From the IMG/VR virus record IMGVR_UViG_3300032253_000229, positions 1 to 37,417 of that record: 37,417 nt of DNA; one strand, 5' to 3'. Shown in pieces: positions 5,967-26,915 of this stretch. The notes below the pieces were generated by a model. The model was given only the letters and a program-made list of their open reading frames with translations, had not been told where the DNA came from and made no database searches. The position numbers were made by a program, and so were the translations under genes. Numbering within the stretch: the first letter of the stretch is position 1; each line of letters begins with the position of its first letter. Source of the stretch: a virus. Lineage: Duplodnaviria > Caudoviricetes.

Positions 5967-8900
5967 TTATACTCCTGTTGCCCGGTAATTGAGAGTGCCG
6001 CCAACGCTGTTCCCGGCGGCATCATATATGTTGGCTGTAAAGCCTGTTTTGGTAATATTTTCCCATGTCGCGATGCGCACGGCCCCTGCAACCGATGCGG
6101 CGGAGACTTCGATAAAAGGCACGTTGTGAAAGGCGGTATCAAACAAGACGGCCGTGCCACCTGCCGCGATGGTCACCGTGGCTGATTTTGATCGCTCAAG
6201 CATATCAACAATGGACGTAAAAGCTGTCAGGCAAGCGCTGCCGCCCGTATTGTCCTGTTGGTGCATGATCTTGAAATACCGCCCTTTAACTTCACGAACG
6301 GTCCAGTCTTCAAAGCCGTCATAAGCGTCAGCTACCCGGCGGTAATCAACTTGCAGGCTGTTTGAAAGAACGCCTGTTTCAGAAACACCGAGTTGATTGC
6401 TAACGGTTCCCCAAACGCGCACGTTATCGTCAAATTCAATATCGATCTCGTTCTCTTGATAAGTGGAAAGCGCCACCGGAGAGGGGACATAACTTGCGAA
6501 TGGATCAACGGTATTGGCAATCGCAGTGGAGGCCGGATTCAAAACGCCTGTCAGCGGGTTACGAATAAAACCGCCGCTGGCCGGATTGGCAAGCCCCGGC
6601 CAGACAGGCCCGCCAGAGACTTCAACAATCATGTCAAACTCACTGATTACATTCAAGCGGGCGACCGTGGCCGTAGCCGAGATATTGCCGGTGCTATCAA
6701 CCGCCCTGATGAAAAAATCCCAGTTACCCGGCAAAACCGTCGCTGTCGTGATAACGGTGCCGACGCTGGCCGTGGTCAGGCTGGTTGCATCCGCCACCAC
6801 TGACCCTACAGGGCCATAAGCCAGAATATGCTGGTCGACATCGCGCTCTGGATGCAGAGGCCAGCGCAAGGTCACGTTGGGGCCATTCTGTTGCACCGTC
6901 AGCCATGCCACGTCGGCAGGCGGCGCTTCTTTGCCGAGCACCGTATGCAACACGACCGCAGACCAGCCCATGACTTGTGCGTTGTCCAGAATGTAGCGGC
7001 TTTTGATCTCATAGATTTTGCCACTTTCAACGCCAGAAATGGCGATCTCCAGTTGCGTTGCGGGAACCGCAGGCAGAATCTCCCAGCTGTCATCACCGCC
7101 GCCTTGTTGCCTGTAAGCCATCTGAAGGCTTGCCACATCATCACGGGCACGACCCGGCTCCTGAAATGCCACCACCATACGGTTGATCCAGCCACCACCA
7201 ACAGCCTCAATCAGGACCGATCCATCTGAACGGATCGACTGGATGGCAGGGGCTGCAAGGCCGGCTGGAAGGGAGATATTGCTGGTAAAGGCAGGGATGG
7301 GTCCTTGATCTGCCTGATAGACCGCCGGGGCCGCTGGAATAACGGTCAGTTTTGCGGTCAGGTCTTGACCGGGCTCGATCTTGTGAACCAGCACGTCCAT
7401 GCTCTCGGCACCCTTCTCGCCGAAGCCATAAATGTCATCAACCGCAATCCCGATCGTATCGGCCACCGGTGTCTTCAATGACAGGGTTGTCTGATCGCCC
7501 GCATTAGTAATAACCTCATAAATCTGGGTACCCGCCAGCACCGTTCTGATGGCCAGTGCGTAGACCTTTCCGATCTCCATCGTTGCCTCATCGTCCAGCT
7601 CCAGATCGGTAATATTATTGCTTACATCCTTGATGATCGAGCGAATACGGCCAGACCCTAATCCTGCAAATATGACATCGTGGTTGAGGCCTATCAAATC
7701 ACCGCGCGTACAGACAATATTTTCAATATCCGCATAGAAAGTGAAGGTTTCAGGGCGCAGCTGGGCGGTGGCATAATGATAGCGCCCGAATTTCCAGATC
7801 AGATCGGGATGGGTAATTCCGGGCAGCTCCAAAGTCTCGAAATTACTGGCATTGGCCGATGAATAGCCATCGGCATAAACGATCATTTCGTCCTGGGCAT
7901 AGCCTTGCAATTCATTAACAAACCGAATGCGCCAGCCGTGGGGGAAATCCAGAAAGGTGCGCTCCCCTGAAAACCCCCAAGAATTCCTTGGTGTGAAATG
8001 CTGGATAGGCACGGTTTGAGGCTGATCGATGACCACTGAAAATTGACCGGCCTCCATGGTTTTGGAGGCGCGACCCGTTGATGCAATCTGATCGAGCGTT
8101 TGACCAACGGTACTGCTAAAATCAACAACACCATTGAACGCATATCCGTTCGCATCACAAAATTCGTGCCACGCCTCAATTTTTGACAAGGCAATCCGGT
8201 TGGTTCCAACCGCCCGTTTATTCGCAGAGCCTGTCATGACCGCTCGAAAGAGGCTGGCTGGGTTGCCGGTAGCACGGGTGATCCATGTTGAGGTGGCCGC
8301 ATCCCAGTCGGGCAGGATCGACGTGCAAACAGCATTTAACTGGCTGACAACACCATTGAGCTGATCTGTCGCTCGAATAACAAGGGCGGTTTTAGCCACA
8401 CCCGGTAGATTGAACGGGTCCTGATACGTGATCGAGCGCAGGGCGCTCCAGGTGCAGCGATCAAAGATACGGGTGCTTTGTGTATTATCTGGCGTTGCCC
8501 GCCGCCCGCGCACTTCATATTGGCCGTTTGCCACGACCCACCGGAAATCACGACGCACTTGCGATGTTGTGTTTTCTGTGAAGGTCTTGGTAATCGAATT
8601 TGTCCAGGGGATGGTGCCGACCGCTCTGATTTCAAAAGTGATATCAACAGAGGTATCGACCTTGGCATTCGTGCTGGTAAATTGAACCAGCCCGGACAGG
8701 AATGCCACATCAATTGTAATCTCGTCCGTGTTGATCTGTGTGGTTCGAACCTGCCAGCCATCCACCTCGTTGAGTAAAATCGATAACCCTTCTTCATTGA
8801 CATCATTACTATATAAAGTCAGCGGGGTATCAGTGTCGTATCCATAGCGATGTTCAACTTCCACTTCGGCGAAATTGGCAAGCGGGGTCTCTCCGATTTT

Positions 8901-9587
8901 AAGGTCAGAGATCGCCAGAGGTCCATATCCCCAGACCACCATCATTCGTAAATACTGCTCATCTCCTCGAATTTCACTATAGCTTTTAGCCCCCAGCGGC
9001 GGTGTCTGCCGGTGGGTGCCTAAAACACGGGGGATCGGGCTGTAAAGCCGGGCATTATTAGCGGAACCAGTGAGGCTGTATGTCGGGCTGTCAGCTGGCT
9101 GGTCTGGCCGTTTTAGCTGCGACGGTGGCGGCGGTGCCAATGCCGCTTGTACCAATGTGCCCACCAGTGAAATTGCAGCCCCTAGCAGCTGCCCTGCTGT
9201 GATCCCTCCAAAAACAGCGGTATTTGCCGCCGCTCCTAAAATCAGGCCGGGGCCAAAAAATGAGGCAGCGGCAAAGCCAAGCATCAGTACCATTTGGAGC
9301 GGGTTTTTCTTACCCCCACCACCGCCGCCCATGGGAACCACCGCCACGGTAATCTGTGCGCCAGCTTTTGGACGAACACTCTCCCACATATCTTTCGGGA
9401 TTTTCACATCACCGACGAAAACATGTGCATGACGCAGCAAAATCGGGTCAGGACAGGCGATCCACAATGCTTGCAGAATGTTCAAGCCTTCGGGCAAAAC
9501 CTGATCGACACGCTCGTTATGCAACGGGTGCATCAGGCCGGTAAACCGAAAACCGTCTCCCGAATTTTCAAGTAATTTATTACTCAT
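5967..9587 (-). CDS. Tail tip / host-specificity protein J with N-terminal gpI-like region
   Basis: 1206 aa; GGGGGGKKNP plus hydrophobic stretch (gpI-like), SPIPRVLGTHR, WGYGPL, NPA motifs, FN3-like repeats. Confidence 0.85.
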   Translation of the reverse strand: MSNKLLENSGDGFRFTGLMHPLHNERVDQVLPEGLNILQALWIACPDPILLRHAHVFVGDVKIPKDMWESVRPKAGAQITVAVVPMGGGGGGKKNPLQMVLMLGFAAASFFGPGLILGAAANTAVFGGITAGQLLGAAISLVGTLVQAALAPPPPSQLKRPDQPADSPTYSLTGSANNARLYSPIPRVLGTHRQTPPLGAKSYSEIRGDEQYLRMMVVWGYGPLAISDLKIGETPLANFAEVEVEHRYGYDTDTPLTLYSNDVNEEGLSILLNEVDGWQVRTTQINTDEITIDVAFLSGLVQFTSTNAKVDTSVDITFEIRAVGTIPWTNSITKTFTENTTSQVRRDFRWVVANGQYEVRGRRATPDNTQSTRIFDRCTWSALRSITYQDPFNLPGVAKTALVIRATDQLNGVVSQLNAVCTSILPDWDAATSTWITRATGNPASLFRAVMTGSANKRAVGTNRIALSKIEAWHEFCDANGYAFNGVVDFSSTVGQTLDQIASTGRASKTMEAGQFSVVIDQPQTVPIQHFTPRNSWGFSGERTFLDFPHGWRIRFVNELQGYAQDEMIVYADGYSSANASNFETLELPGITHPDLIWKFGRYHYATAQLRPETFTFYADIENIVCTRGDLIGLNHDVIFAGLGSGRIRSIIKDVSNNITDLELDDEATMEIGKVYALAIRTVLAGTQIYEVITNAGDQTTLSLKTPVADTIGIAVDDIYGFGEKGAESMDVLVHKIEPGQDLTAKLTVIPAAPAVYQADQGPIPAFTSNISLPAGLAAPAIQSIRSDGSVLIEAVGGGWINRMVVAFQEPGRARDDVASLQMAYRQQGGGDDSWEILPAVPATQLEIAISGVESGKIYEIKSRYILDNAQVMGWSAVVLHTVLGKEAPPADVAWLTVQQNGPNVTLRWPLHPERDVDQHILAYGPVGSVVADATSLTTASVGTVITTATVLPGNWDFFIRAVDSTGNISATATVARLNVISEFDMIVEVSGGPVWPGLANPASGGFIRNPLTGVLNPASTAIANTVDPFASYVPSPVALSTYQENEIDIEFDDNVRVWGTVSNQLGVSETGVLSNSLQVDYRRVADAYDGFEDWTVREVKGRYFKIMHQQDNTGGSACLTAFTSIVDMLERSKSATVTIAAGGTAVLFDTAFHNVPFIEVSAASVAGAVRIATWENITKTGFTANIYDAAGNSVGGTLNYRATGV

Positions 9588-10014
9588 CGATGGCCGGTCC
9601 TGCTTTGTAAAACCTCATTGAAGAATGCCTGAAAAACCCGATGATCCGTTTTTCAAATTTGAAGTTGTGATACTGCTCAAGCGCAACCCCAACGCCTTCC
9701 TGTGCATGGATAAGAAGCCCCGGCTTGACCACAAATCCAATATGAATGGGCCGTGACCTCATCCGCACCAGGACCGCGTCAAATTCCTGCTCACTGCCTG
9801 CCTCAACCTCAAACCAGTCGGCCCGATTATCTTCGATGAGCGTTGCCAGCCTTGGACCATTGCGGGTCGTGTCGTAGCAGGTGGCATATGACGGCAAATT
9901 CTCAAGGAGCTGCTCCCTGTAAATCAGGCGGCCCAAGCCCCAGCAATCTACCCCTTCATGATTTCGACCATGCTCTTGAAACGGGATTTTTATATAATCT
10001 GCAACCCACTCCAT
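9580..10014 (-). CDS. NlpC/P60 tail assembly protein (gpK-like)
   Basis: GVDCWGL catalytic Cys, HIG and LIHA His residues; located before gpJ. Confidence 0.85.
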   Translation of the reverse strand: MEWVADYIKIPFQEHGRNHEGVDCWGLGRLIYREQLLENLPSYATCYDTTRNGPRLATLIEDNRADWFEVEAGSEQEFDAVLVRMRSRPIHIGFVVKPGLLIHAQEGVGVALEQYHNFKFEKRIIGFFRHSSMRFYKAGPAIDE

Positions 10015-10487
10015 CAGAACAGCCCCGGCGCAAGGCCCGGCGTAAAACTGTCGCCGGGATAAGGCTCATCCAGAAAATTTTCAAGGCTCAAATCGCCCGT
10101 CACTTTCAGCACGTCATAACCCACATGGATCATCTGGTAATCGGGGAGATGCAGCTCGATCACTTCAGGGCTGGAAGCCATCACAATTTTGATATCAAAA
10201 CTGGCCGCTGACGAAATTGAGCGGACCGTTTTAACGATCTCACGATCTACATTGTCAATGGCAATTTTTGCATTAATGAATGTAGCGCCGCTACTTTCCG
10301 GCAAGGTGATTTCAAAGGGATAAGCCACATAAAGATCACCTGCATGGGTCAAATCTTCACGATCTGAACAAACCCGGATCGGTGCGGAAAGGTCCACATG
10401 ATCGATAGTAATGAGGATGATAAAAACCTCATCGGTTTCCGGGGCATAAATTGCGGCCTTGGCGGCATCAGAAATGGGCACACTCAT
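10014..10487 (-). CDS. Tail tip protein (DUF1833 / gpL-like)
   Basis: LITIDHVDLSAPIRVC, YVAYPFEITLP, IDNVDREI, FTPGLAPGLF; lies between gpM-like and NlpC genes. Confidence 0.75.
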   Translation of the reverse strand: MSVPISDAAKAAIYAPETDEVFIILITIDHVDLSAPIRVCSDREDLTHAGDLYVAYPFEITLPESSGATFINAKIAIDNVDREIVKTVRSISSAASFDIKIVMASSPEVIELHLPDYQMIHVGYDVLKVTGDLSLENFLDEPYPGDSFTPGLAPGLF

Positions 10488-10843
10488 GGTTGCAGCTCCA
10501 AGGATAGAGAGACCCTGTAATAAGCCCCGCCGCCACGCGGGGAGCCGTAGTCAGGTTCTTTGGCAAATTTGAAGGTTGCAGGCAGCTGGGTGCGCGGATG
10601 AACCCACGTAAAACTCAAAATACCCGACCTTAAAGTCGTGTTGAAAAACTGGTCAAGGGTCTCCACTTGCGCGGCAGTACAGTCAATTTGCCCGCTGATG
10701 GGACGAATGGCAGTGGTCGAGCGACGGCGGCGTTTATCGGGCCCCGTGGCCATCGGCGTTTTCAGCATGTTGGAAGGCGCGCTTTCACGGTAACCGGCGG
10801 CTTCAAAAAATTGCGGTAAAGTTGCGGGCCAGATATCGGTCAT
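10484..10843 (-). CDS. Distal tail / minor tail protein (gpM-like)
   Basis: WPATLP, TPMATGPDKRRRRST, FTWVHP; directly after the tape measure gene. Confidence 0.7.
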   Translation of the reverse strand: MTDIWPATLPQFFEAAGYRESAPSNMLKTPMATGPDKRRRRSTTAIRPISGQIDCTAAQVETLDQFFNTTLRSGILSFTWVHPRTQLPATFKFAKEPDYGSPRGGGAYYRVSLSLELQP

Positions 10844-13800
10844 CTTCCTGCTCCTTGACGGCGGACGCCATAGGCCTGTTGCATCGGCGCATCGAGCGCG
10901 CCAGACGCGATCCCGTCAGCCACTTTAGACAGGATAATACGGGTAATAGCCTGCCCGTCAGCGCCTTGTTGCTGGGAGACAGCTGGAGCCGCCGCATCAC
11001 CAGATCGCTGGTCAATAATTTGAACCACGGTGCCGCCACCAGCCCCTCGAAGGTCCACCGGGATGCGGCGACCGTCCGGCAGGGGCACATTGGCTTCGTT
11101 CATATCGCCTTCGGCCCAAATCGAGACTTGCGGACTGTTGGCAACGCCGCCCTTGCGGTAGGTACGGACAGGCAACTCACCTTGCGGGGTCATGATGCCG
11201 CCTTTTTCAAACCAGCTGAACAGACCCGCACCGGGGCGTACCGGATTGGCCCCGCCATAGCCGGGGGTGCCGGTAGGTCCAGAATTTCCGCCGCCGAATA
11301 ACCCTCCGAAACTATCAAAGATACCGCCTAAAAAGCTATTGAGCGGTTTGGCAATCGTCTGCTGATAAACCATCCGCAGCATGTCATCGATAATCATATC
11401 GACCATGTTGCTGAAAGCATCAGAGACTGTTTCAGTGCCCTTAATCATATTGACAAAACTGTCTTCAGCACCACGAGACGCTTTTTTAAGGGCATTTTCG
11501 GCGTTGGTCGCATGATCCGAATAGTCGTCATTAAGATCACTTAACGCCCGTTTAACGCCATCTGACCAGTCCTTGCTATCGCGCAATTGCTGATCCTGGG
11601 CATCTTTGATCTGGCGGCGGAAAATCTCGTCAATTTCGGCAGCAAATTGTTTATATCCGGCCTTCACCGGATCAAGACCTTTCAGGGCTTCATCGCGCCA
11701 TTTTTTGGCCTTGGCAATGGCCTGATCATAGGCAGGCAAACTGGCAAGCTGCGCCTCTTTTATCTGGTTGATCGTCTCAACATGCTTTTTCTCGATCTCG
11801 CTGGTGCGCGCAATGTTGGATTTGTAGCCCTCAATTGACAACATCGTTTTTTTCAAGGCTGCCCGCTCGGCGTCCGTCAGAACAATCCCTTTTTTCTTGG
11901 AGGCATTGGCAATCTCGCGCACTTTGTTTTCAGCATTGATGCTTTGTTTGGTGATATCATAGAGGTCTTTTGAAATCGCCCGCGCGCGATACAATTTATA
12001 AAGCTGTGCCTCCTCGCGCTTCAACGCATCCAGCCGGTCCGTGTAGATATTATCGGTGGCTGTCGCGCCCGCTTTGGACTTTTTGGGCTGAATATCGATC
12101 TCAATGGGTTTGCCAAGTTTCTGGATATTATCCAAAAGGCTTTGCAGCTGACGGTCAATTTTAGCGATTTCATCACGGGTCGCATCGGCCTGCCCCCCAC
12201 GCCGTTTAGTCAGCTTGTCAATGCCATACCGTTTGGCCAGTTTTGGATCAAGGGTGCCAAGCTCCGCCTCTTCTTTTCGCTGTTCAGCCAATCTGGTGGC
12301 CAGACGCGCGCGGGCGTATTGCAGCTCCACAACCGAAGCCTTGTTGGTTGCAATAGCTTCTTCCCTTCGCGCCGCCGCCATGGCTTTTGCATTTTCAATA
12401 CCGGTTTTCAAAACGCCATTGGCCTGATCCATGGCCGTTCGATAACGATCCGTTGCTGTGGTTGCATCCTCGGAACGCGAGGCAAACTGGTAAATGGCCT
12501 CTCCAGCTAAAACAATCAGGCCAATCGGTCCGCCCAGTAAAGTCAACGCCCGCCGTAAAACGGTCGCTCCGGCGGCGGCGATGCGCGATGCCGCGCCCAT
12601 GGCGATCATGCCAACAGCCGCCGTTTTGGACATCGTTGCCATCATTCGAAGCCCCACGATGGCCCCGGCCGATCCAAGCGTGCTACTGCTAAAAAGCCGG
12701 GTTGCCACGCGGGCCGCTGTGATCCCGACAACCAGCCGGGACATAGCGCCGATATTTTCGGCAGCAAATCCAGTAACTGCCCCGATATTTTTGCCAAGGG
12801 CGGCAATTCCCTCTTTGATTTCGGGGTCGCGCAAGGTAACGGTCAAGGCCTTGAATCCGGATGTTACGCCTGACAGAAAACCGCTTGCTGAAAACTCCAC
12901 CTGCAGGTCGAACATGGCATTTTTGAACCGGTTGGTCTCAGCGGTGGCCGACCTAACAGCGGCAGGCAAACCGTCCTTGAATGTTTTCCGCAACTCGGCG
13001 GCAAATTTGGGCAGGAAGTCGTCGGACATCACCTGTCCAAGTTCCAACATTTTGGAAAGTTCCGCCGTGTTTTTCCCCATCGCCCGCGCGGCAATCTGGA
13101 AGGCACCGGGCAACCGCTCTCCTAGCTGACCTCTAAGCTCCTCTGCCTGCACTTTCCCTTTTGAGGCAATTTGATTCAGGGCCCGAAGGGCACCGGACGT
13201 ATCATCGGCAGAAAGCCGCATGACCGTTGATGCTTCGGCCACGCCCAGGAATATGTTGCGCGTTGCCTCTCCTTCCAAAGCAGTGCCTTTGGTGGCCGCA
13301 GCCAGCTTGGTGTAATCGCCAACGGTTGATTGAAACTCCAGACCGAGCCGTTCGGCTTGATCCCGGACAAACCCGATTTCTTTGGCGCCGGTTGCCATCC
13401 CGCCAGTGGCCGCTGACATGGCATTTTCGATGCCTTCCATCTGGGCACCGGTATTGAATAGTTTGCGTGCCAGCAAGCCAAGGCCGAGGGCGGCAATGGC
13501 TCCGCGCATCCGGCCATATCCGCTAATCAGTTTCTCATTGTCATTCGCCAGTTTGCGGGATTGATTGCCTGCCTGTTTGGCCTTCATACGATATCGATCA
13601 ACCGCATTACTTGCCGATTTGGCAGTGCGGGTAATCTGCCCGTTCTTGCGGGCAAACGCCGCCGCATGACGGGCTGCGACACTGCTGGCTTTACCCGCTT
13701 CGGCGATTTTACGGCTCTGAAAACTGACCGCCGTTTTGACTATTTTCGCAGATTGACCCATGCGCATATTTGCCGAGACAAGCCTCAACGATGCTGTCGA

Positions 13801-13977
13801 TGTTCGGGAAATCTGTTGCCCGGCTTGCGCGATCTGCTGGCCTTGCCCGCTAACGGCGGTGCCGGTCTGTTTGGCGGTGCGGGCAAATTCTTTCTGGGCT
13901 TTACTCCCTTTGTCAAAGGCCACGACAAGGCCCTTGCTATCGCCTTTAACTACCAGTTTGACAATCATATCGCCCAT
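10840..13977 (-). CDS. Tail tape measure protein
   Basis: 1045 aa, Ala-rich helical; tape-measure motif ALNQIASKGKVQAEELRGQLGERLPGA; C-terminal FEKGG...AEGDMNEANVPLPDGRRIPV. Confidence 0.95.
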   Translation of the reverse strand: MGDMIVKLVVKGDSKGLVVAFDKGSKAQKEFARTAKQTGTAVSGQGQQIAQAGQQISRTSTASLRLVSANMRMGQSAKIVKTAVSFQSRKIAEAGKASSVAARHAAAFARKNGQITRTAKSASNAVDRYRMKAKQAGNQSRKLANDNEKLISGYGRMRGAIAALGLGLLARKLFNTGAQMEGIENAMSAATGGMATGAKEIGFVRDQAERLGLEFQSTVGDYTKLAAATKGTALEGEATRNIFLGVAEASTVMRLSADDTSGALRALNQIASKGKVQAEELRGQLGERLPGAFQIAARAMGKNTAELSKMLELGQVMSDDFLPKFAAELRKTFKDGLPAAVRSATAETNRFKNAMFDLQVEFSASGFLSGVTSGFKALTVTLRDPEIKEGIAALGKNIGAVTGFAAENIGAMSRLVVGITAARVATRLFSSSTLGSAGAIVGLRMMATMSKTAAVGMIAMGAASRIAAAGATVLRRALTLLGGPIGLIVLAGEAIYQFASRSEDATTATDRYRTAMDQANGVLKTGIENAKAMAAARREEAIATNKASVVELQYARARLATRLAEQRKEEAELGTLDPKLAKRYGIDKLTKRRGGQADATRDEIAKIDRQLQSLLDNIQKLGKPIEIDIQPKKSKAGATATDNIYTDRLDALKREEAQLYKLYRARAISKDLYDITKQSINAENKVREIANASKKKGIVLTDAERAALKKTMLSIEGYKSNIARTSEIEKKHVETINQIKEAQLASLPAYDQAIAKAKKWRDEALKGLDPVKAGYKQFAAEIDEIFRRQIKDAQDQQLRDSKDWSDGVKRALSDLNDDYSDHATNAENALKKASRGAEDSFVNMIKGTETVSDAFSNMVDMIIDDMLRMVYQQTIAKPLNSFLGGIFDSFGGLFGGGNSGPTGTPGYGGANPVRPGAGLFSWFEKGGIMTPQGELPVRTYRKGGVANSPQVSIWAEGDMNEANVPLPDGRRIPVDLRGAGGGTVVQIIDQRSGDAAAPAVSQQQGADGQAITRIILSKVADGIASGALDAPMQQAYGVRRQGAGR

Positions 13978-13980
13978 TGA

Positions 13981-14355
13981 TCAAGCCCTCACTGCGCGTT
14001 CCTGAAGAACGGTTAAAACTTCATTTTCCATGATCTGGATTTTCTCAAAAACGGATCGTTTATCTATAATTTCCAGCAACTCCATAAGTGCCGATACAGA
14101 CGCATAAATCAAACCGGTCCGCAGGCCATCCATGCCCGCACAATGCCACTGGGTGTCCAGCTGAAAAAACAGCCGGGCAGCGTCATGGTTTTGCGGATAA
14201 ACATCAACGGCCATCAGCTTTGAGGGTGGTCGCGATTTTATCCAGTTGGAAATTTCAACCTCATCTGTTCCACATTCCCTGAGCAAACTGGCAATGTCAT
14301 CATCCTCGATTTTTGGAGCGTCGCCGCCCGCGAAATGACGGGCGACGTCTCTTAG
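13981..14355 (-). CDS. Tail assembly chaperone gpT part (DUF1799-like), expressed by -1 frameshift
   Basis: Frame open from the slippery site through 13981; VYPQNHDAARLFFQLDTQW...GLIY...IQIMENEVL; no good independent ATG. Confidence 0.75.
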   Translation of the reverse strand, partial: LRDVARHFAGGDAPKIEDDDIASLLRECGTDEVEISNWIKSRPPSKLMAVDVYPQNHDAARLFFQLDTQWHCAGMDGLRTGLIYASVSALMELLEIIDKRSVFEKIQIMENEVLTVLQERAVRA

Positions 14356-14699
14356 TTTTTTACCAGAAAGTTATCCCCGTACATGGCCGTCAGATAGGCC
14401 CGAACGATAGCGGTTCGGATGTAAGGCACATCGAGAAAAGCGGCCACGTTGGCCTTGTTGAAGCCGAGCTTTTTACCATCAGGACCGGTCACATCTTCCC
14501 AGCCGATAAGCGCTTTTTCCATCATTTCAAAATCAGAGTTCCGGACCACATCATCGGTCGAGAGCTTGGCAACCTCGCTGTCAGAGAGAACCTTGAAACG
14601 CGCCCGAAATTCGGCACGGTCATGAGTGCCGTCATCGGTTGGCACCTCAATGATGACCGGCCAGTTGAATTCGTGTTTTTTGGAAAAGACAAAAGACAT
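14352..14699 (-). CDS. Tail assembly chaperone gpG-like
   Basis: Between tail tube and tape measure; WPVIIEVP, F-x-A-x-F and LIGWEDV motifs; ends at a slippery heptamer. Confidence 0.8.
   Translation of the reverse strand: MSFVFSKKHEFNWPVIIEVPTDDGTHDRAEFRARFKVLSDSEVAKLSTDDVVRNSDFEMMEKALIGWEDVTGPDGKKLGFNKANVAAFLDVPYIRTAIVRAYLTAMYGDNFLVKN
14355..14361 (-). other. Programmed -1 ribosomal frameshift site A AAA AAC
   Basis: Minus strand reads GTA AAA AAC TAA; -1 frame continues LRDVARHFAGGDAPKIEDDDIASLLRECG into the downstream ORF. Confidence 0.8.
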
Positions 14700-14708
14700 G
14701 TTTAAACC

Positions 14709-15638
14709 CTATTTAACTGTAATTGAAAGTTCGTCATCGCCGGTCGATGGTGTCGGAATGAGGTCCATATTCAACATGACAGTTCCGTTATCATCGCCGT
14801 AGCTGGGCGCTTTGATCTGGATTTTAGGGGCATCAATCTGGACGATGTTACCCGCCGCCGTTCCATGCACCAGCTGCAACGGTGCAAGCGCCGCTGAATT
14901 CGCCAGTGTGAAGAAATCCTTGGTGGTGACGGCCGGGGCCTCGATCGAGACACTTCCAGAGCCTTGACGGTCTGAAATTGTCACCTCTTCGGCCCCAACC
15001 AGGTTACGATAATTAACCTGATTGCCAATATCGAAATTAAGCGATTTCATGATGGCGGCATAGCCGTGCAGAGTGAAGGTCGGGCTGTTGCTGTTGGAGC
15101 CTTCGATGGGGGCTGTAAAGCCGCTCAATGTCGGCACCGGCATCGCGACTTCGGAAGGGTCGACATACAGTCCTGTAAAGTCGAATTTGAAATACGGAAT
15201 TTCGCCTGCGCCAAACTCGATTGATACATTGCCCCGCGCACCAGATAGCACATGCCGGGTGCCATCTTTAAAGAAATAAAGCGTGGCCGATCCGTAACTG
15301 CCCGAGACCGGATCATATTTGACATCAACGGCCGCCTGAATGGTTTCGGCAAAACCGCAAGCCAGTAACGCCGGGCCATAAGCCGGAGCTGTTCCTGCGG
15401 CCCCGGCACCGGCCATTTCAACCTTGAAAGAGCATTTGACATGTTTGCCAGCTAAAATTTCAGGCTTGGCTCCTAAAAAGCCGTCCAGCAGATTACGCGC
15501 CTTGTACTCGCCTTCGAGCGGACTGACATCGGCATCCGTCACCAGCAGGGCATTGGCGGCCCCTGTTGGCGTGGCATCGGTGCCATAAGTGACTTCGGAT
15601 TTAAGCAGAATGATGGATTGATTGGTCTGTTTTGACAT
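14709..15638 (-). CDS. Major tail tube protein
   Basis: 309 aa; KSEVTYGTD N-terminus, PAYGPALLACGF, beta-rich; upstream of the tail chaperones. Confidence 0.8.
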   Translation of the reverse strand: MSKQTNQSIILLKSEVTYGTDATPTGAANALLVTDADVSPLEGEYKARNLLDGFLGAKPEILAGKHVKCSFKVEMAGAGAAGTAPAYGPALLACGFAETIQAAVDVKYDPVSGSYGSATLYFFKDGTRHVLSGARGNVSIEFGAGEIPYFKFDFTGLYVDPSEVAMPVPTLSGFTAPIEGSNSNSPTFTLHGYAAIMKSLNFDIGNQVNYRNLVGAEEVTISDRQGSGSVSIEAPAVTTKDFFTLANSAALAPLQLVHGTAAGNIVQIDAPKIQIKAPSYGDDNGTVMLNMDLIPTPSTGDDELSITVK

Positions 15639-15919: not shown

Positions 15920-16336
15920 CTACGCCCGGTATTGAGCAGGAATGGTGAATTCGTCCTGCCAAAGAACAATTTGATTGGTAAAGGCCGCCAGCCGGCCGCC
16001 CTGAAAATAGGTGCCATTAATGGCTTCTGAGTGCCGCCAGCCATTAAGGATGACCTTTAGTTTGGCGCGTAAAATCATGATTTCCTCAAGCGCGCCGCCC
16101 CCTTGGCCATCGGCCACATTCTTGGTTTTCAACAAAACTGCAAAAGTGAATTTTTCGTCCTGGATAAAAGCCCCGGCCATCGCCTTGTTGGCATTGGCCG
16201 TCTCCGAGACCGGCAGTATGAAAGCGGCGGGCGTTATCCGCAGGCCATCAATATCGCCCGGGCGCGTGGCAATCTCGACCCGCTTCAATTCGGGAATGGA
16301 TGCGTCAATATAATCGCGAATTTCAACCAGCTTCAC
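15920..16336 (-). CDS. Tail terminator protein (Mu gp37-like)
   Basis: Likely GTG start at 16336 (VKLVEIRDY); TPAAFILP, LNGW, VLWQDEF; position after virion morphogenesis gene. Confidence 0.7.
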   Translation of the reverse strand: MKLVEIRDYIDASIPELKRVEIATRPGDIDGLRITPAAFILPVSETANANKAMAGAFIQDEKFTFAVLLKTKNVADGQGGGALEEIMILRAKLKVILNGWRHSEAINGTYFQGGRLAAFTNQIVLWQDEFTIPAQYRA

Positions 16337-16823
16337 GACTGATCTCCTTGAAATAATTGACCGTAATATTCTTGATGCGATCCGCATCATCGGGACCGAT
16401 GCCCACATGAGGGCGGGCAGGCAGAGTTACCGATTTGATAGTGATGAATTTACCGCCAATTTTGAAGCGCAGCGCCTTGCCATTTTTAGGGCGGATGGTG
16501 CCGCCGAATTGCTGGATGGCGGCATAAATTACATTGCTGCCAACCTCGGCATAATCCTTGCCAGACTGACCGATATAGGAATCCGCAAGGCGTCCGCTAT
16601 CGAGCAAGGTTTCGCCGCCCTCCATCTGGGCGCGCCTTGATGGCTTCCAAGGCTGACCATCTGGGCTTTCCTGATTTTGGAAATTGTCCTTAACATCCGA
16701 TTCCAGGCTTTTGCTAATAACTTTCATCAAAGGGGTCATATTGCGCGCGCCATCCAGTAACCGGTTGATGGTGCGCTCGGCGCTCATGTCATCAAGGGTT
16801 ATTTCCATGGAAAAACCACTCAT
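16323..16823 (-). CDS. Phage virion morphogenesis protein (Mu gpG-like)
   Basis: SPDGQPWKPS, LLDSGRLADS, VGSNVIYAAIQQFGG, LPARPHVGI. Confidence 0.9.
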   Translation of the reverse strand: MSGFSMEITLDDMSAERTINRLLDGARNMTPLMKVISKSLESDVKDNFQNQESPDGQPWKPSRRAQMEGGETLLDSGRLADSYIGQSGKDYAEVGSNVIYAAIQQFGGTIRPKNGKALRFKIGGKFITIKSVTLPARPHVGIGPDDADRIKNITVNYFKEISREAG

Positions 16824-19467: not shown

Positions 19468-19956
19468 GTGATCTCCATTTGGGTTTGAGGGGTTTGCTGA
19501 ATGTTGGACTGCGGCCAAGGCCGTCAGGTTCAAGGCAGGATCATTGGTCAGTGCCACCCGTAAAATCCGGGTAACGACACGGCCTGATTTTGTGTAAGTA
19601 AAAGTTGGGGACAGATAGCGGTATTCACGGTCCGCAAGCATCTCCTTGGCGCGCGGTGTCCATTCCACTCGTGCCCAGATGCCGTCGGTGCGGGCTTCAA
19701 GCTCTTTGATCCAACCGGCAGCAGGAGCAGGCTGGCCATTATCAACCGCGTGGTCCGTTTGATGCTCATAGTCAAATACGAGATCACGGCCCCGGGACAA
19801 TGATTGACTGATAACCGCCGTGGCATCTTTCAATATCCATGGATCACGCCCATCAACAGAATTGAATTTTCCAAGGGGCATAATATGGACCCATTCCGGA
19901 ACACCGTCCGGCAAGTCAAATCCGCATATGGCTAATTCAAAGTCCAATTTACTCAC
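18904..19956 (-). CDS. Prohead protease (Mu gpI) with C-terminal scaffold region
   Basis: DYEHQT, APAAGWI, VEWT, EYRYLSPTF, ALTNDPAL. Start probably GTG at 19956 (ORF extends to 20082 across the promoter). Confidence 0.9.
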   Translation of the reverse strand: MSKLDFELAICGFDLPDGVPEWVHIMPLGKFNSVDGRDPWILKDATAVISQSLSRGRDLVFDYEHQTDHAVDNGQPAPAAGWIKELEARTDGIWARVEWTPRAKEMLADREYRYLSPTFTYTKSGRVVTRILRVALTNDPALNLTALAAVQHSANPSNPNGDHMNELIKRLMAILGQTGEMTEEALCTLLTEMVANAASTNTALAAIADTVGLTEAADATEIATAVASVKSSSEPDPTKFVTVAQFQEVNTALASLQSKLAEGSATAAVDAAVEAGKITPANRSWALTLAKSDMGSFNDFLKNAPVLAGAADMGGKAEGGAALSEAEIAICRATGVSEENFKKQKEADAK

Positions 19957-19995
19957 CTGTTCAAAATTCGGTTGCCGTTTTTTTGATCTTGAGTG

Positions 19996-20042
19996 AGTAT
20001 GGTCAGAACGCCCCGTGCAAAATGCCCGGAAGTGGTTCCGGT
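19996..20042 (-). promoter_or_regulatory. Activator-dependent late promoter (P_I-like) with CCGGAA-N4-TTCCGG box
   Basis: AATGCCCGGAAGTGGTTCCGGT (20021-20042) nearly identical to 27922-27943; candidate -10 CATACT 19 nt downstream on the minus strand. Confidence 0.65.
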
Positions 20043-20203
20043 CAAGCGATATTCGCAGCCATCTGGAAAACGCCCCTGACACCTCCCGATAACATCGCCG
20101 TTAAACACCTATTAAACGGGCTATTTTCGCCTGTAGGCGTTTTCAGGGATGATGGTTGCCAAATTCGCTTTAAAACGGTTCTGGGGCGTTTTGCGGGGTT
20201 GGG

Positions 20204-20231
20204 TTGATATTCTATCAGATGTGCTTATATT
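20204..20231 (+). promoter_or_regulatory. Putative sigma70 promoter firing against the prophage late operon
   Basis: TTGATA (20204-20209), 16-bp spacer, TATATT (20226-20231); predicted start about 20237, at the 5' arm of the structured RNA. Confidence 0.5.
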
Positions 20232-20234
20232 AAC

Positions 20235-20349
20235 GGGACAGGTGATGTGGAGACGACGGTAAAAATTCAGCCGGCCGCAGCACGGAAGTTTAAGTACTGA
20301 CGGAGCGTTCGGGGTTTACGGGCTGGCCCTGCACACATCACCTGTTTTT
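20235..20349 (+). ncRNA. Putative structured ncRNA convergent with the MuF-nuclease gene
   Basis: Perfect 12-bp closing stem ACAGGTGATGTG (20238-20249) / CACATCACCTGT (20334-20345), extended by G-U pairs only on the plus strand, then a T run; upstream promoter; no ORF listed in this interval. Confidence 0.55.
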
Positions 20350-21516
20350 CCGATATATTTCCTGATGCTTGGCCATATACTTTTCGGTGGTTTTTTTATT
20401 TGTTCTAATCAGGGTCAGCGCAAAAAGAGCTTGGCCATCTGCCGTTATCTTGACACCCGCCCGGTAATAATCGTAAGAGCTGGCTGGCCAGACAAAGGCA
20501 ATACGATTTTTTGTATGACGAAACACACGGCCCTTTTCAATGATCTCTGGGAGCTTTTTATAATCCTTAAATTTGACGTCACGATGCTTGTCAATATGTG
20601 TGGCCAGCGTCTCCGTCGAGATATCTATCCGCGCCACGCGCCCGGTAAATCCAAAATCAATTCTGCTGTCAAGCCGCCCAACCGGGGCGGTCCCTTCGAT
20701 CACGCCATCAAATAAATCTTTGAAATGTGGGCTCTGAACAGCCAGCTTTGCAGCCTCATGGCCCAGATCATCGCCTGTATATTTGGCAGGGTCCGGAAAA
20801 CGCCCCGTTGCCACCTTGCCAACATTGCCCTGCCAGCCCGGATCAACACCGGTTGGGATTTGATGAACCTCCCCCGTTCGCTGGTTTGTCCAGCTCCGCC
20901 AGTTTGGATCAACAGGCTTCGAGATTTTCTCTTTTCGCCGTTTTAAATCATCGCCAGAGAGTTGCTGAACCGTGCATCGGCACCGCCAGCCGTTGGGAGG
21001 ATACAGCCAGTCCCATGTGGGATCATCGACGGGCAGGATCGTTCCGTGCCAGCTTTTATGCAGGGGCCGGGTGCGGCTGTCCCGGATAACCACATAGCGC
21101 AGATATGGCATGAATCTTTTTACCCGCTGAATTCGCATCCAGTGCCCCGCCGCATAAGATGACCGCATATTGGCATCAAAAATAATCCGCAAGCGACGCT
21201 CACTGCCCAGCTGCACAATGTCGGTTTTGCCTGTTAGCGGATCATAAAGAGGCTTCTTCCCCCACCAGCCTTTAGCCTTTAATTTGGGAGCCAGCTCCTT
21301 TTGAAACGTCTCGAACGTGGTACCATCAGCGATGGCTGTGCTCATCGCAGCTCGAATATCTTCAAGGATATCAAGCCGCATGACCTTAGCGACGGTAAAG
21401 GACTGCGCGTGTTCTGCAACAGCGACATCCTGCCAGCCAAAGCTGATCCGGTACCCCTTAGATTGAAAATAGCTGACAACCTCTGTGGGCTGCAGAGATT
21501 TGAATTTAACGCTCAT
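20338..21516 (-). CDS. MuF (gpF) minor head protein with C-terminal PBECR-like putative nuclease domain
   Basis: MuF core FTVAKV, GWWG, RTRPLH..WHG, PPNGWRCRC, GVDPGW; about 130-aa extension with HIDKHRDV, DYKKLPEIIEKG, AGVKITADGQALFALTL. Confidence 0.85.
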   Translation of the reverse strand: MSVKFKSLQPTEVVSYFQSKGYRISFGWQDVAVAEHAQSFTVAKVMRLDILEDIRAAMSTAIADGTTFETFQKELAPKLKAKGWWGKKPLYDPLTGKTDIVQLGSERRLRIIFDANMRSSYAAGHWMRIQRVKRFMPYLRYVVIRDSRTRPLHKSWHGTILPVDDPTWDWLYPPNGWRCRCTVQQLSGDDLKRRKEKISKPVDPNWRSWTNQRTGEVHQIPTGVDPGWQGNVGKVATGRFPDPAKYTGDDLGHEAAKLAVQSPHFKDLFDGVIEGTAPVGRLDSRIDFGFTGRVARIDISTETLATHIDKHRDVKFKDYKKLPEIIEKGRVFRHTKNRIAFVWPASSYDYYRAGVKITADGQALFALTLIRTNKKTTEKYMAKHQEIYRKNR

Positions 21517-25896: not shown

Positions 25897-26108
25897 TTCT
25901 GACCCCTGTTTGACTGACGTTCAATTTGTTCCTGGCAGATGACACAGGTCTGGACACCGGGCAGGGTTTCCTGCCTGATTTGCGGAATTTTACGACCGCA
26001 ATAACAGACATCCGCACTGGATTGAGACTGTTTCCAAGTGGCTCGTTTTACGGACATCGCCCGTTCAAATTCTTCCACATTTTGCGCTCTATCAGCTATA
26101 TCAACCAA
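25893..26108 (-). CDS. TraR/DksA C4 zinc-finger protein
   Basis: DIADRAQ N-terminal motif; CYCG..IP..R...LPGVQTCVICQ. Confidence 0.85.
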   Translation of the reverse strand: MVDIADRAQNVEEFERAMSVKRATWKQSQSSADVCYCGRKIPQIRQETLPGVQTCVICQEQIERQSNRGQK

Positions 26109-26904
26109 GCGAACCTCCCAGAGTGTCGCGTTGCGCTTTCGTCAGCACCAGAATGTAGGCGGTGATGCGGTGACGTTTGAACGGCTGGACCGGCACATAA
26201 AATTTAAATCCTTGGGCAAGGCCCGCTGCAAAATCTGCCACCATATCCAATATCTGGGCGATCACAGGCGGGCTTTGCTGTACCTCACCAGATCGGCTGA
26301 TATAAATTAACTGGCCAGTATGGCGATAGCTCATCACCAGCATTGGTAAGTTGGGGACGATATCGCAGGCATTGACAACGCGGTAATGGGTTAAAACCGC
26401 CGCGCTATATTCAGAAAATTCGGCATCCCCTGGACGCGCGCATCCAAACGTATAAATGACAGGAACGACGGACTGGTCAGCCACAAATCTCGGTGCAAGA
26501 AATACCGCCAGATCACCGCCCAGACTATGGCCTGTGTAGAAGATTTTTGACTTGCCTTTCAAGACTGCTTTCACTTCATTGTGAAGCTGGTTTGCGCCGG
26601 CATAAAATCCCCGGTGGCACCGGCCATATTTGGTTTTGATCAATCTGAATTTAAGATCGGTCAGAATGTCTCTGTAATTTTTCTGGGTGCCACGGACGAC
26701 AACAACGGTGCCTTCATCAAAATCGACAACAAAGGCTTGTTGATTTTCGACCGAAATATACTGCACAGAAACAGCCCCGAGTTTTTCAAACTCGCTGGTA
26801 CCGGAGCGTTCAGAAAAATAGGCAATTTCAGAACACTCGGCCAGAAACCTCGCGGTGTCTGGCCGGTACGCTGTGTGACTACCTTTAAGGGCTTTTGATG
26901 GCAT
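26101..26904 (-). CDS. Lipase class 3 (alpha/beta hydrolase)
   Basis: VVVRGT, HRGF, TGHSLGG nucleophile elbow, YTFGCARPGD, RVVNACDIVP (Asp), C-terminal H...AY; AGGAGG RBS before ATG 26904. Confidence 0.9.
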   Translation of the reverse strand: MPSKALKGSHTAYRPDTARFLAECSEIAYFSERSGTSEFEKLGAVSVQYISVENQQAFVVDFDEGTVVVVRGTQKNYRDILTDLKFRLIKTKYGRCHRGFYAGANQLHNEVKAVLKGKSKIFYTGHSLGGDLAVFLAPRFVADQSVVPVIYTFGCARPGDAEFSEYSAAVLTHYRVVNACDIVPNLPMLVMSYRHTGQLIYISRSGEVQQSPPVIAQILDMVADFAAGLAQGFKFYVPVQPFKRHRITAYILVLTKAQRDTLGGSLG

Positions 26905-26915
26905 CAAGGCCCCTC

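Follow-up and report, generated by a model that had tools for sequence, protein, structure and literature searches.

The window, meaning the whole stretch of DNA analysed here, is a 37.4-kb Mu-like prophage record whose genes are read on the minus strand. By Pfam, the gene order is transposase, terminase, Mu portal, MuF, protease I and major head protein T. A Phage_Mu_F protein with a C-terminal extension, the Mu portal, the protease and the transposase all lie within it, which is the arrangement of an extended MuF in a temperate phage. The tail module (5967-15638) is lambda-like and stands alongside the Mu-like head and transposase, a G-like gene (16323-16823) is placed after gp36 rather than after F, and a class 3 lipase gene (26101-26907) adjoins the endolysin in the lysis region. 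MuF and the RNA element convergent with it have the following features.

20338-21516, minus strand: gene for the MuF minor head protein, 392 aa, with a Phage_Mu_F domain at residues 53-183
20341-20754, minus strand: PBECR-type (BECR-fold) domain, a predicted RNase, MuF residues 255-392
20584-20586, minus strand: His311, predicted catalytic, in the N-terminal helix (PBECR configuration)
20413-20415, minus strand: Thr368, predicted active-site Ser/Thr, in the last strand (PBECR configuration)
20204-20231, plus strand: sigma70-type promoter of the RNA (-35 at 20204-20209, -10 at 20226-20231, predicted +1 at 20237-20238)
20235-20349, plus strand: predicted small RNA, a four-way junction of tRNA topology, convergent with MuF
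20238-20249 with 20334-20345, plus strand: closing stem P1, in acceptor-stem position, a perfect 12-bp inverted repeat
20257-20277, plus strand: hairpin P2, in D-arm position, its loop containing the 5' kiss strand (20268-20272)
20280-20306, plus strand: arm P3, in anticodon-arm position, a conserved internal loop followed by a hairpin that varies in length and sequence, irregular in the window copy
20310-20331, plus strand: hairpin P4, in T-arm position and stacked on P1, its loop containing the 3' kiss strand (20321-20325)

An initial annotation of this DNA had credited MuF with an extra C-terminal domain of about 130 aa and with no protein immunity gene behind it, and both statements hold. 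The extra domain measures about 138 aa (residues 255-392), and no same-strand ORF of at least 30 aa intervenes before the reading frame of the protease, counting from the stop codon of MuF. The small immunity ORF expected directly downstream in MuF polymorphic toxins is absent behind the window's MuF. The protease gene probably starts near 19947-19956 and not at 20082, since its Pfam match begins at residue 65. The gap before that gene (19950-20200) contains inverted repeats, which we take to resemble the Mu late promoter region.

Residues 255-392 match zero Pfam families above cut-off; with PBECR1-5 and MuF_C, the best score is 16 bits, for PBECR1, against a cut-off of 27.6. An exhaustive protein search returned 74 relatives at E<=0.001, and an AlphaFold model of the domain built from 36 of these sequences has a pLDDT of 93. 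The top seven VIA structure matches to this model are all BECR-fold toxins (BrnT leads with Z 6.5, followed by a Salmonella toxin with 6.2; colicin D scores 5.5 and 5.0, and three CdiA domains score 5.0-5.5), with Z values of 5.0-6.5 that are middling and indicate fold, not function. Its structure neighbours in the Atlas are PBECR2/PBECR3 clusters, at TM 0.70-0.82. In the account of Iyer et al. 2017 (PMC5512222), the PBECR active site consists of a His within the N-terminal helix together with a C-terminal Ser/Thr. The fold named in the initial annotation is borne out: the domain has the helix and meander sheet of a BECR fold, with H311 and T368 as the catalytic pair. Among 90 distinct domains adjacent to the RNA, 82 extend over the catalytic His column and 76 of these have the His, while 88 of the 90 have the C-terminal Ser/Thr. 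The window domain belongs to a PBECR subfamily without a Pfam model, and it may be a colicin-D-like, tRNA-directed RNase. Other searches were negative: Foldseek with the domain model gave zero matches at E<=0.001, a sequence-profile search of solved structures none, PADLOC no match and PHROG none for the domain, a word-indexed protein search recovered the query alone, and a viral scan with the domain alone produced no confirmed relative.

The RNA element was likewise described in the initial annotation, and every feature named there is present. The perfect 12-bp closing stem lies on the strand opposite to MuF and has its G-U extension specifically on the plus strand; the complementary segments CAGCC (20268-20272) and GGCTG (20321-20325) are both there, as is a terminal T run (20345-20349), and the MuF stop codon (20338-20340) falls inside the 3' arm. 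The proposed promoter, TTGATA-16-TATATT, is present with 10 of 12 matches, but taken alone it does not rise above chance (three sites found against 2.3 expected). Folding of the single sequence gives modest z-scores of -2.4 on the plus and -2.95 on the minus strand and leaves the strand unfixed.

Comparative sequence analysis places the element in an RNA family. At MuF loci fetched by protein (78 plus a further 30), an antisense element often starts about 100 nt past the MuF stop, and a pattern of the shared core taken from these loci was then searched for in DNA by itself. Of the 120 viral-contig matches listed, 56 passed a stem filter. A scan of a species-level genome set with one strict pattern listed at least 120 matches out of an estimated 160 stretches, mostly in Proteobacteria by record titles. 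Cultured carriers of the RNA include Ochrobactrum phage POA1180 and, with an orphan copy, Leisingera aquaemixtae. A pattern scan of metagenomes gave 16 loci; three belong to the family, and among these is the source of the window itself. In sequencing runs, no carrier of the RNA was seen among the matches listed. In the 37 kb of the window, the element is the sole match of an RNA model built without the window (35.5 bits, E 1.6e-6); it is a divergent member of the family. The family is uncatalogued. Against Rfam, the window element reaches no family at gathering score, tRNA included, and in Rfam 15 none was reached by 20 loci or by a further 10. An exact 22-nt DNA pattern of the RNA had no match in viral sequences, and blastn of the RNA against cultured phages gave one chance match at first and none on repeat.

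RNAalifold applied to 54 sequences gave a four-way junction unaided. The layout of the family consists of P1, a 4-nt linker, P2, one nucleotide, P3, about five nucleotides, and P4 running straight into P1, which is the topology of tRNA. Across 62 members, 96.4% of cells are paired and both partners vary in 27 of 37 pairs; for 100 members gathered without the window the figures are 97.1% and 30 of 37, the invariance of P2 and part of P3 being due in part to the search pattern, which fixed them, and the shuffle control ignoring kinship. All eight of the eight P1 pairs covary. The loops of P2 and P4 form a 5-bp kiss in the place of the D-loop/T-loop elbow of tRNA, a pairing fixed by neither the search pattern nor the model. 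In this kiss 307 of 308 cells pair and four of five pairs covary (five of five in the window-free set), with about 18 different 5' strands across the family. Sequence conservation is high in the junction core, where some nucleotides are invariant. This covarying junction at MuF-PBECR loci is the conserved structure beside homologues whose absence would, by the initial annotation, have refuted its reading. Immediately ahead of P1, a -10 box is present in 64 of the 86 copies linked to the nuclease and in 33 of 71 orphans, the copies with no detectable domain nearby, compared with 465 of 3620 random positions. ARAGORN calls no tRNA on family loci L001, L060 and L072. A CCA end was considered as a family trait and rejected, as it is not regular among members.

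Read on the plus strand, the family has 176 G-U or U-G cells, compared with a total of 78 cells that are unpaired in any way (summed by hand), and because of this excess we assign the RNA to the strand antisense to MuF. The orientation raises the prospect of type I-like control in cis, in which the convergent RNA would pair with or terminate the late mRNA and so limit expression of MuF or of downstream genes. The RNA does overlap the stop, the last codons and the 3' region of MuF, and in many loci it fills the gap between F and G. However, pairing with its own opposite strand would require neither a conserved kiss nor a G-U bias nor tRNA loops, and the orphans and arrays described below have no target in cis. 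Antisense control is therefore an improbable account of the RNA.

Other clades of the nuclease carry other RNAs in the same slot downstream of the gene. Behind MuF_C-type genes that keep the His there are tRNA-derived RNAs (L358 1900-1986; L360 1358-1446; L028; L044; L077), which have D- and T-loop motifs and no anticodon loop. In Escherichia coli Sakai Sp18 the RNA lies at about 5058640-5058722 of NC_002695.2, on the minus strand, and carries no annotation there; with the tRNA model of Rfam, whose cut-off is 29, it reaches 31.4 bits, and its middle arm is not an anticodon arm. L077 is called tRNA-??? by ARAGORN, and L028 has a full T-arm. PBECR2-type genes have other kissing folds in the slot. 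Two-hairpin elements, read by eye, accompany PBECR2- or Arg-type domains (L042, L051, L052, L057, L061, L063, L064, L066 and L071; L005, L009, L016 and L033), and their loops are complementary and, again by eye, vary together. The RNA model of the window family detects neither the tRNA-derived nor the two-hairpin RNAs, and profile comparison of the window domain family with the MuF_C clade gives a weak match of 29%. Shared ancestry of these RNAs thus finds no support in either comparison. An element in phage SuMu (L352 2460-2560) carries a kiss strand inside a loop resembling a tRNA T-loop and may connect the two types of RNA. Curvibacter phage TJ1 (L363 1800-1920) has a differently folded element with a promoter and an intrinsic terminator, after a His-bearing MuF. 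Together the slot RNAs run from elbows derived from tRNA to elbows that are fully remodelled. The elbow common to them points to mimicry of tRNA, which is firm for some clades and, for the window family, inferred from topology.

The RNA and an intact domain mostly occur together and are lost together. Starting from the RNA, a convergent MuF/PBECR ORF is found beside 40 of the 56 structured viral matches and three of the 64 others, among the matches listed; those three are family members by the RNA model. Starting from the protein, 95 distinct MuF loci were classed by eye, after much of the DNA had already been viewed, as intact, degenerate, short or other, and a stem-plus-promoter detector was positive at 26 of the 49 intact loci but at none of the 19 degenerate, 24 short and 3 other ones. 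Presence of the closing stem by itself fails to separate the classes (40 of 49 intact and 19 of 19 degenerate loci), and folding z-scores of the downstream region are too noisy for classing loci. Among the 23 intact loci missed by the detector, five are members by the model, 17 have kissing folds by eye, and one (L002) has none. L002 (3803-4190) has the His and no clear RNA, and is followed by an acidic ORF of 100 aa that belongs to no known family and is possibly a protein immunity gene.

The 19 degenerate loci represent about eight lineages, as judged from the alignment and not from a tree, phage Mu among them. Of the near-identical relatives L028 and L027, the former has the His and the RNA, and the latter has lost both the His and the gap, so that G abuts. 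In phage Mu, F is without the His and overlaps G, and Iyer et al. (PMC5512222), in their treatment of the domain, call the Mu copy inactive. The F gene of Mu looks like a disarmed relic from which both the RNA and the active nuclease have been lost. Six further named records, picked from match lists, fit this pattern. In Sakai Sp18, Pmp9 and TJ1 the His is accompanied by an element with a promoter. MuM16-1 and VW-6B are without the His, the tail of RS138 is non-homologous, and in all three the gene ends 9 nt or less before G. The L132 lineage, in which the RNA is kept beside a degenerate domain, counts against co-loss. Joint presence and loss would also be seen with a domain that binds or matures the RNA.

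These distributions bear on two further explanations. The packaging RNA of phage phi29 (pRNA) works through loops that kiss between molecules around the portal, and the RNA described here could be a packaging or head-assembly RNA of that kind: its loops are complementary, and MuF is portal-associated according to the Discussion of PMC5576092. However, the RNA is absent at the 24 short-MuF loci and in phage Mu, and it is present in chromosomal cassettes that have no MuF, so that we give this role the slightest chance of all those considered. Hardly more probable is a small self-cleaving or ligand-binding RNA that merely hitch-hikes with the cassette. Invariant junction nucleotides and a pseudoknot-like contact would suit such an RNA, but it matches no ribozyme or riboswitch in Rfam and gave no sign of self-cleavage in this analysis; moreover, tRNA-derived RNAs replace the family in sister clades, and the RNA tracks the active site of the protein.

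The same RNA is also found with the domain outside MuF. Stand-alone PBECR genes of 114-141 aa, chromosomal and with no MuF, are convergent with it at three loci (L264 1684-2211; L230 1247-1774; L260 1684-2126), and since MuF-free genes pair with the RNA, its partner is the domain. Cassettes L264 and L260 adjoin what we take to be housekeeping genes. A looser case of a MuF-free PBECR gene with the RNA occurs at L376 (1285-2019).

Many copies have no nuclease beside them. At 66 of the 120 listed genome-scan loci with room for it there is no detectable domain, and orphans are about as common as linked copies. They are intact, with a 5/5 kiss in 67 of 71. Searched with one profile, 47 of 49 orphan-bearing genomes or records, many of them incomplete, have no domain anywhere; the other two have the domain elsewhere, each with its own RNA. 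In Pfam, the neighbours of 48 genome and five viral orphans include Mu late/Mor genes, repressors, integrases and housekeeping genes, as well as SIR2, MmeI and Cas-associated genes. The orphans at L136 and L153 lie among small phage genes on the coding strand. In a Novosphingobium assembly (L261 1158-1788), five diverged tandem copies stand directly downstream of a repressor-like gene and have four different kiss sequences, two of the five copies being read by eye or weakly scored; by one profile, this genome has no domain of the window family. Two tandem copies, each with a -10-like box, are present at L239 (1655-1965), and two copies on opposite strands at L287 (1684-2146). Individual variants were seen as well: L258 has lost its last loop, L318 follows a T-loop-like hairpin, and L315 is cut after the first strand of the fourth arm by an ORF that is presumably HicB-like.

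The orphan pattern fits stored immunity, and it fits equally an RNA whose function needs no nuclease. The effector might be the RNA itself, carried or matured by the domain, with a ribonucleoprotein delivered from the head and the RNA serving as a tRNA decoy against host defences that cut tRNA or against a tRNA-binding factor. Several observations speak for this reading: orphans are numerous and intact in genomes with no resident domain, some, at L136 and L153, lie among small phage genes, the junction core is highly conserved, and PBECR domains may spare host tRNA, as argued in PMC5512222. However, co-loss fits an effector less well than an immunity RNA. The RNA has outlived a decayed domain in one lineage and at 0 of the 19 degenerate loci picked by protein. 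In addition, different RNA folds go with different domain clades, which suggests matched pairs and argues against an effector. We regard the effector reading as unlikely, although it is the main rival to an immunity RNA.

The RNA is probably a tRNA-mimic immunity factor for the virion-borne predicted RNase domain of MuF, as judged from sequence comparison. Because RNA and domain are mostly kept or lost together across many phages, the RNA is likely the antidote of the nuclease, and an immunity RNA is the simplest account of the joint loss, the MuF-free pairs, the matched RNA types and the stockpiled orphans. Among the roles offered by the initial annotation, antitoxin or decoy is the best supported; that annotation did not extend to the likeness of the four-way junction to tRNA, the loss of the RNA along with the active site, the cassettes free of MuF or the orphan arrays.

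MuF toxins have been proposed to be loaded into the head, injected and in need of immunity (Jamet et al. 2017, PMC5576092, Discussion). Along these lines, a tRNA-directed RNase domain would travel inside the head and enter the cell together with the injected DNA, and the host sigma70 polymerase would transcribe the RNA both in the lysogen and shortly after the DNA has entered. The RNA would occupy the substrate site of the RNase, either as a poorly cleaved mimic or as a sacrificial decoy, and so protect the producing cell and lysogens, and orphan copies would protect against nucleases delivered by other phages. An antidote of RNA needs no translation, which would suit a toxin that stops translation. 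A broader picture is possible, if doubtful: widespread RNA immunity for virion-delivered polymorphic RNases, in which the toxin is injected with the DNA and cancelled within minutes by a translation-free, tRNA-shaped RNA, a host that destroys the DNA is poisoned, antidotes are born from tRNA and diversify with the toxins, and prophages and bacteria stockpile foreign variants as orphans and arrays.

To our knowledge, polymorphic toxins have immunity factors made of protein. If real, a tRNA-shaped RNA acting in their place would be a new way of disarming a nuclease and would explain the many extended MuF genes that have no immunity ORF. PBECR domains, so far predicted only, would gain a partner and a direct assay.

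Several known systems resemble the one described here. MuF polymorphic toxins (PMC5576092) have the same MuF N-terminal domain and C-terminal predicted nuclease in a temperate phage. An RNA partner is not mentioned in the parts of that article on these toxins, whereas the window locus has one, and if the immunity reading holds the RNA replaces the immunity protein. Neither do the sections on PBECR and MuF-C domains in PMC5512222 and bioRxiv 10.64898/2026.08.28.747851 describe an adjacent RNA, and the window domain scores below every Pfam PBECR cut-off. In open-access main texts, searched with queries one of which used an imprecise domain name, no RNA partner for MuF or PBECR is described. AcrIIIA1 (PMC11662646) was compared and is unrelated.

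The likeness to tRNA (RF00005) extends to the four-way junction, the 1-nt and 5-nt linkers, a last arm continuous with the closing stem and a loop-loop elbow. RNAs of sister clades keep the true D- and T-loop motifs of tRNA. In the window family, by contrast, a Watson-Crick kiss replaces these motifs, an anticodon loop is missing and a CCA end is not a regular feature.

In type III toxin-antitoxin systems (ToxIN, AbiQ, AbiF), a protein RNase is kept inactive by a structured RNA that binds it. Their antitoxins are co-transcribed with the toxin and are mostly tandem pseudoknot repeats that the toxin cuts. The proposed silencing of a predicted RNase by an RNA would work alike, and there are MuF-free two-part cassettes here too. 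However, the RNA here is single, convergent, self-promoted and tRNA-shaped, and the putative toxin has a BECR fold and usually sits on a virion protein. By this analogy, if the immunity reading holds, the system would work like a type III pair while departing from the type III layout.
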